A DNA stretch of 64,000 bases from Escherichia coli (GTDB lineage: Bacteria; Pseudomonadota; Gammaproteobacteria; Enterobacterales; Enterobacteriaceae). A program made the translations under genes and the position numbers. Shown here in pieces: positions 13,590 through 16,245 of this stretch. Each line of letters begins with the position of its first letter. The stretch's first letter is position 1. Location: assembly GCF_030013205.1 (NCBI RefSeq), contig NZ_CP122648.1; one strand, given 5' to 3'. The notes beneath the pieces were generated by a model. That model was not told the DNA's origin. It saw only the letters and a list, made by a program, of their open reading frames with translations, and searched no databases.

Positions 13590-14137
13590 GCGTTAGTTTC
13601 TCCACAGACACAAAACGCCACGACGCCCGGAGCTGCACACTCGCGGGCGTCACTCTTTTCTGGAGCGCAGAAAATTTTGTAGACCAGTGCCGCATGCTCC
13701 TGGAGCTTCGAAATTGACAGATACAATTCATCATTAATTGCTGTCTGCTCGTGTGGCTCCACTACCCCATCTTCGATTGCCGAACGAATCTGCTTTGAGT
13801 AACTCCCGATCTGTTCGATGACTTCCAGCAGGCGCTGGTTTATATCTGCGTTCTCTACTTCCTCAATTTCAGGAAGCGATACAAACACCCCACCAGCAGA
13901 CTGTGCGACAGCATCCGCAATGTAGTGAGTGCCAGCAGCACGCTGTAAAATCATTGCCCATCCCAGCGGGAAAATCTGATCGCCATCTGCACGAAGGCGG
14001 TTGAATAAAGCGTTCTCTGTAACATCCAGCCACTCAGCAGCTTCAGCGTAACCCCCCGGCAACGCCGCGATAGTTTTTCTGACAGCTTTCACGTACCACT
14101 CAGGCTGTTTTTCCACTTTCCAGTGATGATTACCCAC
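13586..14137 (-). CDS. Early regulatory protein immediately downstream of cro (YdaT/CII-like position); C-terminus possibly altered by a deletion junction
   Basis: 183-aa ORF overlapping the cro stop; family assignment is by position and weak recollection only. Confidence 0.35.
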   Translation of the reverse strand: MGNHHWKVEKQPEWYVKAVRKTIAALPGGYAEAAEWLDVTENALFNRLRADGDQIFPLGWAMILQRAAGTHYIADAVAQSAGGVFVSLPEIEEVENADINQRLLEVIEQIGSYSKQIRSAIEDGVVEPHEQTAINDELYLSISKLQEHAALVYKIFCAPEKSDARECAAPGVVAFCVCGETNA

Positions 14138-14390
14138 GGCTTACCTCCTGTTCCTGTGGTTTAAACCCATTCTGGTTTTGGCTAGATTGAAAACGTGCCG
14201 GATAAAGAATCTGCATTTCGCTGATTTCACCCTTAAAAAAATTGGCCAGACGTTCTGCAAGATCGATAGATGGAATTTGTTCCAGTCTTTCAATACGACT
14301 CAGCGTCGCTGGATTGACCTGAACGCCAGCAGCAACATGCTGCAAAGTAAATCCGTGCGCCTTACGCACATTCCGTAATGGTGATTGCAT
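14130..14390 (-). CDS. cro: Cro-like HTH (XRE-family) repressor
   Basis: 86 aa with HTH (GFTLQHVAAGVQVNPATLSRIE), divergent from the cI-like gene across a 97-bp operator region. Confidence 0.75.
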   Translation of the reverse strand: MQSPLRNVRKAHGFTLQHVAAGVQVNPATLSRIERLEQIPSIDLAERLANFFKGEISEMQILYPARFQSSQNQNGFKPQEQEVSRG

Positions 14391-14487: not shown

Positions 14488-15180
14488 ATGAACATAGGAA
14501 ACCGAGTCAGACAACTTCGCCAGGCGAAGAACATGAAAATCGCCGATCTCGCTGAAGCAATAGGAGTGGATGCGGCGAATATCTCACGCCTGGAAACAGG
14601 TAAGCAGAAACAATTCACTGAACAAGCCCTGAGTAATATTGCCAAGAGCTTAGGTGTTGATATTGCTGATCTCTTTACCTCAGACTTCAAAAGTAATACT
14701 GTATGTAAAAACAGTATTAGTGAGGATGTTGCGCAGGTGAAGGATGTATTCCGTATTGAAATGCTGGATGTCAGTGCCAGTGCGGGAAATGGCCTTATCC
14801 AGGGCGGTGATGTCATTGATGTGATTCATGCCATTGAATACAGAACTGATAATGCTGTATCGATGTTTGGTGGACGGCCAGCCAATCACATTAAAGTTAT
14901 CAACGTTCGTGGGGACAGTATGTGTCCAACCATTGAGCCAGGAGATCTCATCTTCGTTGATGTCAGTATCAATCAGTTTGATGGAGATGGTATCTATGTA
15001 TTTGGTTTTGATGATAAAATTTATGTCAAACGACTGCAAATGATACCTGACAAACTACTGGTGATTTCTGATAACCAGATTTACCGTGAATGGGGAATTA
15101 CCAGCGAAAATGAACACCGGTTTATGGTCTTTGGAAAGGTCTTAATCAGCCAGTCACAAACCCTTAAGCGACACAATTAA
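14488..15180 (+). CDS. cI: CI-like prophage repressor (HTH-XRE N-domain and S24 LexA-like peptidase C-domain)
   Basis: 230 aa; N-terminal HTH (MKIADLAEAIGVDAANISRLETGK), C-terminal ...GDSMCPTIEPGDLIFVD...YVKRL with Ser/Lys dyad pattern. Confidence 0.85.
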   Translation: MNIGNRVRQLRQAKNMKIADLAEAIGVDAANISRLETGKQKQFTEQALSNIAKSLGVDIADLFTSDFKSNTVCKNSISEDVAQVKDVFRIEMLDVSASAGNGLIQGGDVIDVIHAIEYRTDNAVSMFGGRPANHIKVINVRGDSMCPTIEPGDLIFVDVSINQFDGDGIYVFGFDDKIYVKRLQMIPDKLLVISDNQIYREWGITSENEHRFMVFGKVLISQSQTLKRHN

Positions 15181-15200
15181 CCCTTACCTCCTCATCAATT

Positions 15201-15225
15201 AGCCACCCAAAGGTGGCTTTTCATC
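15201..15225 (+). terminator. Rho-independent terminator after cI
   Basis: AGCCACC-CAAA-GGTGGCT hairpin followed by TTTTCAT. Confidence 0.55.
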
Positions 15226-15229
15226 ACCC

Positions 15230-15280
15230 TTTAAATTGCATATCTCGCAACAAAAACACTTGCATAATGCGCAACTTCAT
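15230..15280 (+). promoter_or_regulatory. Putative left operator/promoter (oL/pL)
   Basis: Two sites with the same TTGC-N7-GCAA pattern as oR: TTGCATATCTCGCAA (15236-15250) and TTGCATAATGCGCAA (15260-15274). Confidence 0.45.
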
Positions 15281-15882
15281 TTTATCTTTCTTTCCAGACA
15301 AACAAACAAGGTACTAACAAAATTTGGTTGTAACACGGCGTATGGCACATGCGTCGTTAGCGGTCTGGGGACGTTAAAGGGGACAATCCACTCCTTGCTC
15401 GGGCAAACAAACCAGGTAGCCGGAATGTGCAAGTCAATGATGATGCTGATAAGACGCCTAACCAGCGTGGCGATTCGGTTTGACGCCTGGGAAGAGACCA
15501 GGGTGCAACGATGAGGGCATTTATGGAGCCGCGACAAAGTGTGGTGCCGTAACTGGCTAAGTGCTCTCAGCGTTGTGGTAATCCGCGAAATGGCGCGGCG
15601 GTAAGTATGGCGGGGTTACTCTTTCCCCGTTGAGGACACCGGATTGTCAGGTTGACCATACGCCTGAGTGACAACCCCACCACAACAGCCACTGCTTTGG
15701 CGGTACCAGTTTGTACCCTTGCTTCCGGCTGGTACCGCTCTTTTTACAAAACAGAGAAGAGCATCACCGGACGACGAGCTCATAACCCAATCCATCCGGG
15801 CGGCTGCCACCGCAGGTGTTCTTCTCCGTTTTGTGGAGAAACCAACCGACCTTGCAGGGTCGATATGATGAGGAGCAGCAAA

Positions 15883-16245
15883 ATGGCTAGCGAACGCAGT
15901 ACTGATGTGCAGGCATTTATTGGGGAGCTGGACGGCGGCGTATTTGAAACCAAAATCGGCGCAGTTCTCAGTGAAGTCGCTTCCGGTGTGATGAACACGA
16001 AAACCAAAGGTAAGGTCTCGCTCAACCTGGAAATCGAACCGTTTGATGAGAATCGTGTGAAAATCAAACACAAACTCTCGTATGTTCGCCCGACTAACCG
16101 CGGGAAAATTTCCGAAGAAGACACCACCGAAACGCCGATGTATGTCAATCGCGGTGGTCGCCTGACTATTCTGCAGGAAGACCAGGGACAATTACTGACT
16201 CTTGCTGGTGAACCTGACGGAAAACTCCGCGCAGCAGGTCATTAA
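15883..16245 (+). CDS. YfdP-like prophage protein (CPS-53 family), 120 aa
   Basis: GAGGAG ribosome-binding site 7 nt upstream of ATG at 15883; size and position match yfdP ahead of the yfdQ/yfdR homologues. Confidence 0.5.
   Translation: MASERSTDVQAFIGELDGGVFETKIGAVLSEVASGVMNTKTKGKVSLNLEIEPFDENRVKIKHKLSYVRPTNRGKISEEDTTETPMYVNRGGRLTILQEDQGQLLTLAGEPDGKLRAAGH

Follow-up and report, generated by a model that had tools for sequence, protein, structure and literature searches.

Conserved structured RNA modules in the early-left leader of an N-less lambdoid prophage of Escherichia coli

In this work we analyzed the region between the cI-like repressor gene and yfdP of a lambdoid prophage that is carried in a 64-kb stretch of E. 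coli DNA (assembly GCF_030013205.1, contig NZ_CP122648.1; this whole stretch is called the window, and coordinates without a locus number refer to it). In this N-less prophage, positions 15230-15880 form the untranslated leader of the pL (early-left) operon. This leader consists of a series of conserved, folded RNA modules located 3' of pL and joined in mosaic fashion. Among them is a pseudoknotted RNA (15331-15578), which lies upstream of the motifs described in the initial annotation of this DNA and was missed there. Regarding the function, we tentatively favor, while not regarding it as established or even as probable, a cis action of this promoter-proximal RNA that would enable polymerase coming from pL to pass the terminator tL0 further downstream, termination there yielding an early RNA of about 450 nt.

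The early-left region and its coding capacity

PHROGs assignments place a Cro-like gene (14130-14390, minus strand) and a CII-like gene, both facing left, next to a CI-like repressor gene facing right (14488-15180, plus strand). YfdP (15883-16245, plus strand) is encoded by the first gene 3' of the leader and is followed on the same strand by YfdQ, YfdR and the excisionase (xis). An N-like gene is not found among these neighbors, in agreement with the initial annotation. On the pR side, the ORFs in the window are contiguous and leave no non-coding gap. Elsewhere in the window, a 339-aa ORF (18762-19781, plus strand) with no PHROG match, possibly a cargo or defence gene, is located in AT-rich DNA that separates the excisionase gene from the integrase gene. 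A tRNA-Gly(UCC) gene (8254-8328, minus strand) is located left of the immunity region, and a naRNA4/REP-type element (24395-24477, minus strand) and three tandem tRNA-Leu(CAG) genes (24625-24947, plus strand) are located past the integrase gene; these elements probably mark the host chromosome.

The cI-like gene ends in a terminator hairpin read from the sequence (15201-15223, plus strand), AGCCACC-CAAA-GGUGGCU followed by UUUU, the homologue of which carries a terminator annotation in SfII. Two operator-like palindromes were likewise read on the plus strand, TTGCATATCTCGCAA at 15236-15250 and TTGCATAATGCGCAA at 15260-15274, together with a putative pL consisting of a -35 element TTGCAT (15260-15265) and a -10 element TATCTT (15283-15288). 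Since a consensus promoter scan did not call this site at 15260-15288, the promoter is only inferred here, and transcription would start near 15296. Among relatives, the operator/promoter segment 15236-15288 varies with immunity type.

As the initial annotation had stated, the region is non-coding. Within 15230-15880 there are only a 92-aa ORF (15236-15514) and an upstream extension of yfdP, both of which start with TTG. In 38 diverged copies of the core RNA described below, neither frame is conserved, no frame anchored on an invariant motif is open in more than 11 copies, and no conserved small ORF was found that would explain the region. These copies are 153-182 nt long, and their length differences are not divisible by three. 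Thus, a small protein, encoded either by the 92-aa ORF or as an N-terminally extended YfdP, has little to recommend it beyond the presence of both candidate ORFs in the window: their TTG starts, the position of the start of the 92-aa ORF within an operator, the loss of frame among the copies, the unrelated genes that stand 3' of the same RNA modules and the compensatory nature of the stem substitutions all argue against it. We regard this explanation as exceedingly improbable and protein coding as effectively excluded.

Architecture of the leader RNA

BLAST comparison with phage records splits the leader into three blocks with different distributions, B (~15322-15578), C (~15579-15698) and D (~15697-15882). 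The single-sequence fold of the leader is only modestly better than that of shuffled sequences (z = -2.8, plus strand), and the structural case is therefore based on comparison with relatives. To this end, two alignments were used. For block B, more than 220 viral-contig loci obtained from two pattern scans were grouped into 39 clusters at 92% identity and represented by 38 sequences (alignment A2); alignment A3 contains 13 diverged copies of block D, comprising tL0 and the domain D_H behind it. In A2, 92.4% of the cells are paired for the 28 proposed pairs as compared to at most 48% with slid partners, 16 pairs are changed on both sides, and none of 500 shuffles reaches the observed values. 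In A3, the share of paired cells is 92.9%, compensatory changes are seen in 12 pairs, and again none of 500 shuffles reaches these values. For both alignments together, 92-93% of paired cells stand against at most 49% with slid partners, matched by none of 500 shuffles. The proposal of the initial annotation that the leader is structured thus holds among relatives, since in this covariation check the core, tL0 and the 93-nt domain D_H all show compensatory base changes.

Judging from these changes, block B is a genuine structured RNA. Its core is a pseudoknotted module of 175 nt (15331-15505, plus strand), delimited by A2 and by the covariance model R1 built from it, which finds only one copy in the 64-kb window (15331-15505, 142 bits, E = 2e-47). 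Helix P1 (15336-15356) carries the invariant loop GGCAC, and helix P2 (15365-15368 with 15412-15415) closes a variable arm, the tip of which keeps YUCCUUG. An invariant stretch, GUAGCCGGAAUGUGCAAG, follows at 15416-15433. Helix P3 could not be aligned reliably (57% paired in A2) and was treated as a variable hairpin. Helix P4 (15454-15457 with 15465-15468) has a 7-nt loop that pairs with a downstream GGUKU to form the pseudoknot (15460-15463 with 15477-15480), and helix P5 (15486-15490 with 15498-15502) closes the loop GGAAGAGA. Frequent G-U pairs, which would not pair on the opposite strand, assign the core RNA to the plus strand. About 55 nucleotides, most of them unpaired, are invariant among the 38 aligned copies from viral contigs and from E. 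coli and Klebsiella phages. A second pseudoknot may form between GCACAU of the P1 loop and AUGUGC at 15425-15430; all bases involved are invariant, so that this pairing gives no covariation signal.

The core is followed by the hairpin H2 (15506-15578, plus strand), CAACGAUGAGGGCA ... UGCUCUCAGCGUUG and then UGG, which folds at -33.9 kcal/mol. Its tip is variable, and the H2 strands pair at -23.7 kcal/mol with their own partners as compared to -15.7 kcal/mol with the 3' strands of other copies. In about 200 of 227 loci, H2 is the next element 3' of the core, and core and H2 together form an RNA of about 250 nt that starts about 40 nt past the predicted pL start. In some copies, an insertion of about 60-100 nt is found at the tip of H2 (SPN1S, L125 2615-2712; L091; L443 1205-1300). 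These insertions hold two T-loop-like hairpins, CUGGUUCAAUUCCAG and GUCCGUUCGAUUCGGAC, in which ARAGORN calls no tRNA. The sequence GTTGTGG (15572-15578 in the window and present in many loci) forms the 3' end of H hairpins; the mosaic modules switch there, and recombination or processing may take place at this site.

Linker module C (15579-15698, plus strand) was delimited by the mosaic BLAST pattern and an alignment of alleles. It opens with the hairpin CCGCG-AAAUGG-CGCGG, and at least three alleles, this one included, are interchangeable at its position. The element following it, tL0 (15699-15745, plus strand), is a predicted intrinsic (Rho-independent) terminator in which a covarying GC-rich hairpin precedes a U-run. 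The 11-bp stem (GGCGGUACCAG / CUGGUACCGCU, -21.2 kcal/mol) encloses a 19-nt pyrimidine-rich loop and is followed by CUUUUU; in A3, four stem pairs are compensatory and UUUUUAC is invariant. This terminator is present in all of the 76 viral loci in which YfdP is identical; these loci form the sibling set used below.

The hairpin followed by CGCUCUUUUUACAAAAC that the initial annotation had pointed out is present at 15699-15752, a few bases away from its earlier placement. Its reading as a boxA-like element was not confirmed: in relatives, CGCUCUU is replaced by CGCCCUU, CGACCUU or CGUCCUU. Since the word varies while hairpin and U-run are kept, CGCUCUU is the tail of tL0 and not a boxA. As in lambda nut sites and in the leaders of rrn operons, a hairpin stands beside the CGCUCUU word in an early leader, and this word matches the start of lambda boxA and most of rrn boxA. 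A lambda- or rrn-type nut site, where the hairpin and CGCUCUUUUUACAA would recruit NusB/NusE with or without an unrecognized N-like protein, could be proposed on this basis. In contrast to lambda nut and rrn boxA, the word in the window is unconserved and part of a terminator tail, and no N-type protein is encoded by the early-left genes 3' of pL. Similar UGCUCU words in the H hairpins are base-paired. We therefore judge a nut site to be very unlikely, and boxA/nut is effectively excluded.

The long inverted repeat of the initial annotation is real and forms the outer stem of D_H (15746-15838, plus strand), a 93-nt domain with three inner helices and the invariant loop CUCAUAACCCAAUCC that ends in GUGGAG. 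In this 20-bp stem, ACAAAACAGAGAAGAGCAUC (15746-15765) pairs with GGUGUUCUUCUCCGUUUUGU (15815-15834); the stem is conserved, with four compensatory pairs. Block D stands before different first genes in different phages. A small hairpin read from the sequence, CGACC-UUGCA-GGGUCG (15847-15862, plus strand), covaries in relatives, e.g. to GGCGG-UUGCA-GCCGCC, and a Shine-Dalgarno sequence GAGGAG (15870-15875, plus strand) precedes the yfdP start codon at 15883. A promoter scan found no promoter-like site between tL0 and yfdP, and no strong plus-strand terminator was found past tL0 within yfdP-xis. In the CPS-53 prophage of E. coli K-12, all these leader modules are absent upstream of yfdP.

Distribution of the core and its alternatives

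Of 5426 complete E. coli genomes, 1833 contain block B, in every case without annotation. It occurs in three unrelated settings, namely lambdoid pL leaders, Uetakevirus loci and the ban operon of P1. The 227 viral loci with a full core comprise 112 of the Uetakevirus type, about 74 lambdoid and two P1-like loci. With R1, full copies were also detected in P1, SPN1S and a Klebsiella phage, and further full copies are present in a Salmonella phage and in Citrobacter genomes. In a 14-mer scan of a genome collection, six of the matches listed are real, five from Enterobacteriaceae and one from a short contig labelled Bacillota; most of the matches listed are due to chance, including one in a coding gene of a Lachnospiraceae genome, and the host range of the core is therefore only roughly bounded. 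In all settings the core is oriented in sense, with a promoter nearby and ORFs 3' of it, and no partner gene co-occurs with it across settings.

In Uetakevirus phages such as TL-2011b, SPN1S and a Klebsiella phage, the core is flanked by the portal and terminase genes, and in 107 of 110 Uetakevirus loci it lies 40-100 nt past a conserved TTGACA and the palindrome TTACCTTTNAGGTAA. This arrangement (e.g. SPN1S, L125 2376-2420) looks like a repressor-controlled promoter for a unit of the RNA and tRNA-Arg. The tRNA-Arg(UCU) gene begins at the final G of GUUGUGG in 50 loci, and in the five examples that were read (from 26 distinct sequences) the RNA continues over 600-800 nt, passing one or two terminators before an RBS and an ORF are reached. 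In the Klebsiella phage ST512-KPC3phi13.3 (L126 2953-3474), an ORF with a DUF2829 domain, presumably the fold of phage anti-defence proteins, follows the RNA and tRNA-Arg unit, which would make this locus an accessory or anti-defence hotspot. In P1 the core (L002 3010-3191, between trnI and ban) stands in the middle of the C1-controlled ban operon, starts about 10 nt past the 3' end of tRNA-Ile, lacks H2 and has no terminator behind it; it is unannotated although the P1 genome is well annotated.

In the sibling set, the element nearest to pL is the block B core in 47 of the 76 loci and a different module, P, in 25; both are present in one locus and neither in three. In the latter three, pL is followed by another linker allele and then by the identical tL0. 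B and P were each found behind the same cI gene and operators, so that the choice between them is not simply linked to immunity. Module P is a structured module of 60 nt, AACAGGCAGGACGCCCACGAAGUAGCCGCC-hairpin-GGAUGAUUCG, the hairpin of which covaries (CCUGG/CCAGG, CCGG/CCGG, CCCGG/CCGGG); the words GUAGCCG and GAUUCG are common to P and the block B core. P comes first after pL in the N-less lambdoid phages ST64B (L442 ~950-1010), phiNP (L443 ~840-900), SfV (L445 ~700-760) and SfII (L001 ~3180-3240), where the non-coding leaders are 800-1000 nt long. In SfII, a truncated first hairpin of the core, ACACGGUGCAUGUGUCGU (L001 3125-3175), is fused to module P, as if recombination between the two alternatives had left a scar there. 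Overall, the distribution of core and P suggests interchangeable alleles for one job, the pattern expected in that case.

Relation to known RNAs and possible functions

The initial annotation had also raised the possibility of an unannotated RNA element in the leader. This is borne out by the core, for which Rfam holds no match. A search of 15100-16000 against Rfam 15 gave no family match, including ROOL, GOLLD, C4 and tRNA-like families, with two chance-level matches at E = 1.8 and 9.1. No gathering score was reached in the window or in 10 related loci, except by tRNA, isrK and C4 elsewhere. In searches of the window and 13 related loci at gathering and permissive thresholds, no family covers the region, and the sole lead was the sub-threshold STnc100 score of sibling alleles described below. 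ARAGORN detects no tRNA or tRNA-like gene in 15230-15880, and a full-text literature search with invariant sequence words of the core gave no match.

The put RNAs are cis-acting, protein-independent antiterminators that bind the beta-prime zinc-binding domain of RNA polymerase. Those of HK022 and HK639 are about 70 nt long, consist of two stem-loops and bind RNA polymerase (PMC9378689). Like put, the core is located just past pL in an N-less lambdoid phage, is structured with conserved unpaired bases and is followed by a terminator. Helix P1 shares ACGGCG...CAUGCGUCG with put stem I, a likeness without statistical support, and a stretch CUCAGGAAGAG in HK639 resembles P5. In contrast to put, the core has about 175 nt and five helices including the pseudoknot, with H2 in addition; it is also present in Uetakevirus phages and P1, next to tRNAs; and while HK022 has both putL and putR, the window has a single copy of the core and none on the pR side. 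At maximum sensitivity, nhmmer gave no match in the put regions of HK022 or HK639, and with filters off the best R1 score against both phages (5.8 bits) belongs to a terminator hairpin that is not part of put. A put family does not exist in Rfam. A 14-nt stretch identical to HK022 sequence was discarded because it falls within the nun coding sequence. In the HK639 record (L240 37910-37969), an 'M3-like RNA' is annotated past cII in addition to a putL-like RNA. Thus, the suggestion of the initial annotation that the leader holds a put-like element of the HK022 family was not sustained, as the HMM and covariance-model searches are negative, the fold differs and a pR-side copy is absent. A put-like function, i.e. 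protein-independent read-through, is nevertheless suggested by the position of the core and the pattern of alternative elements. For yfdP-type lambdoids the absence of N has been noted, and a put-like RNA has merely been suggested (PMC12315714).

Other RNAs resemble parts of the leader. STnc100 and PasD have been described as prophage-borne, Hfq-bound small RNAs. The SfV and ST64B alleles of the segment from the H hairpin to tL0 score 39.5 and 35.1 bits with the STnc100 model (RF02076), which is below its gathering score of 47, and the module C allele of the window itself gives no match to STnc100 at E up to 10. Since the SfV and ST64B alleles resemble STnc100, which is related to PasD, this analogy suggests that RNAs ending at a terminator of the tL0 kind can accumulate. 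Unlike the leader, published copies of STnc100 and PasD lie in the late region near Q, lysis genes or stx and not after pL. EPEC Pas small-RNA probes are absent from the window. ROOL and GOLLD are associated with tRNAs, and like these multi-domain structured phage RNAs the core often stands beside tRNA genes; in contrast to them it is smaller and has no Rfam match to either, and its named sources are all Enterobacteriaceae genomes and phages except for the short contig labelled Bacillota. In lambda 6S RNA and StxS, a promoter-proximal terminator likewise gives a discrete RNA unless polymerase is terminator-resistant (PMC7547250). These RNAs depend on Q protein at pR', whereas the leader of the window has a pL promoter, no evident protein factor and a far larger RNA (~450 nt).

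According to the reading favored here, transcripts started at pL would continue into yfdP-yfdQ-yfdR-xis or, if stopped at tL0, yield a structured early RNA about 450 nt long. The promoter-proximal RNA would act on the polymerase that made it and let pL-started complexes pass tL0, while read-through from the co-oriented cI gene would be halted there. The job of put would thus be performed by an unrelated and larger fold. We infer every functional step of this scheme; the structures, their order and conservation, the ubiquity of the terminator and the alternative-element pattern are observed. Several lines of evidence argue for it. The structure is real and lies on the plus strand, with compensatory changes. 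Since there is no promoter-like site between tL0 and yfdP and tL0 occurs in 76 of 76 loci, early-left expression including xis needs read-through of tL0. Core and P are nearly exclusive at pL (47 versus 25, both in one). In Uetakevirus phages the core again lies past a promoter-like motif and, in the five examples, upstream of one or two terminators, and in P1 it belongs to a C1-controlled operon. The roughly 55 mostly unpaired invariant nucleotides fit binding to a conserved host machine, and the lack of an N-like gene, the speculation in the literature on a put-like RNA in yfdP-type lambdoids (PMC12315714) and the short likeness of the P1 hairpin to put stem I point in the same direction. 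On the other hand, three of the 76 loci have the identical tL0 with neither core nor P, the pR operon has no second copy as putL/putR of HK022 would lead one to expect, and processive antitermination is not obviously needed because no strong plus-strand terminator follows tL0 within yfdP-xis. In addition, the P1 core stands in mid-operon after a tRNA with no terminator behind it, read-through in Uetakevirus phages would enter the convergent terminase genes, the direct fusion to tRNAs better fits a processed, stable RNA, and the put likeness lacks statistical support.

The strongest rival explanation, which we consider possible and nearly as likely, is that core and H2 form a non-coding RNA that acts in trans, is processed and stable, and is synthesized early once the prophage is derepressed. 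Such an RNA would counter a defence system or target a host component (e.g. a protein, tRNA or the ribosome) by binding or mimicry; the downstream part ending at tL0 would be a small RNA of the Hfq type, and the leader would be a parking place. Processing of the directly fused tRNA genes (tRNA-Arg(UCU) in 50 loci, tRNA-Ile in P1) would free the RNA, P1 carries the core with no tL0 behind it, and the large number of invariant unpaired bases would be in keeping with a specific partner being recognized. The sub-threshold STnc100 score of a sibling allele of the terminator-proximal part, reminiscent of Hfq-bound PasD, and the DUF2829 gene beside the RNA in one Uetakevirus locus can be added. This explanation does not sit easily with the lack of a co-occurring partner gene across settings, with the constant sense orientation near promoters and upstream of ORFs, or with the missing STnc100 match of the window's own module C, and the near mutual exclusion with P at one spot is harder to explain for accessory cargo.

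Two further explanations have less in their favor. A conditional attenuator, in which the RNA fold would respond to a signal (metabolite, protein or uncharged tRNA), set the degree of stopping at tL0 and thereby time xis and the other early-left genes, agrees with the order of promoter, complex conserved RNA, intrinsic terminator and gene known from riboswitches and attenuators, and with the excisionase gene in the operon. The pyrimidine-rich tL0 loop is moreover, as read by eye, complementary in some register to the invariant purine loop of P5, GGAAGAGA. By eye, no alternative antiterminator pairing with the tL0 strands was found, the core is about 190 nt away from tL0 with interchangeable modules in between, the P1 core has no terminator, and no Rfam riboswitch matches; we consider this explanation improbable. 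It is also rather unlikely that the leader is a passive structured spacer, the folds of which keep Rho off a long untranslated leader and insulate the early genes from cI read-through, with modules being mosaic filler swapped at GTTGTGG. The folding of the whole leader, the free exchange of modules at GTTGTGG and the three loci with neither core nor P would be in line with this, but a spacer would not keep about 55 mostly unpaired invariant nucleotides and a pseudoknot over three phage lineages.

Going back to read-through in cis, a more far-reaching and doubtful possibility is that 15331-15578 represents a new class of RNA, a large, pseudoknotted, protein-independent elongation regulator unrelated in fold to put. 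It would cause terminators to be ignored from a repressor-controlled early promoter and would be a portable cassette acquired by lambdoid, Uetakevirus and P1-like phages. Many lambdoid phages, such as Stx2c, cdt-converting and serotype-converting phages, have to express their early-left genes without N, and if true, this reading would answer how yfdP-type lambdoids do so. The leader offers testable candidates in this respect, namely a covariation-backed pseudoknotted RNA, a conserved terminator and natural variants with an alternative element or none. The RNA formed by the core and H2 (175-250 nt) occurs in about one third of the complete E. coli genomes as well as in phages from several genera of enterobacteria, and so far neither Rfam nor genome annotation includes it. 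Adding it to both would improve the annotation of prophages and would draw attention to an abundant early transcript of phages with possible contacts to the host machinery.
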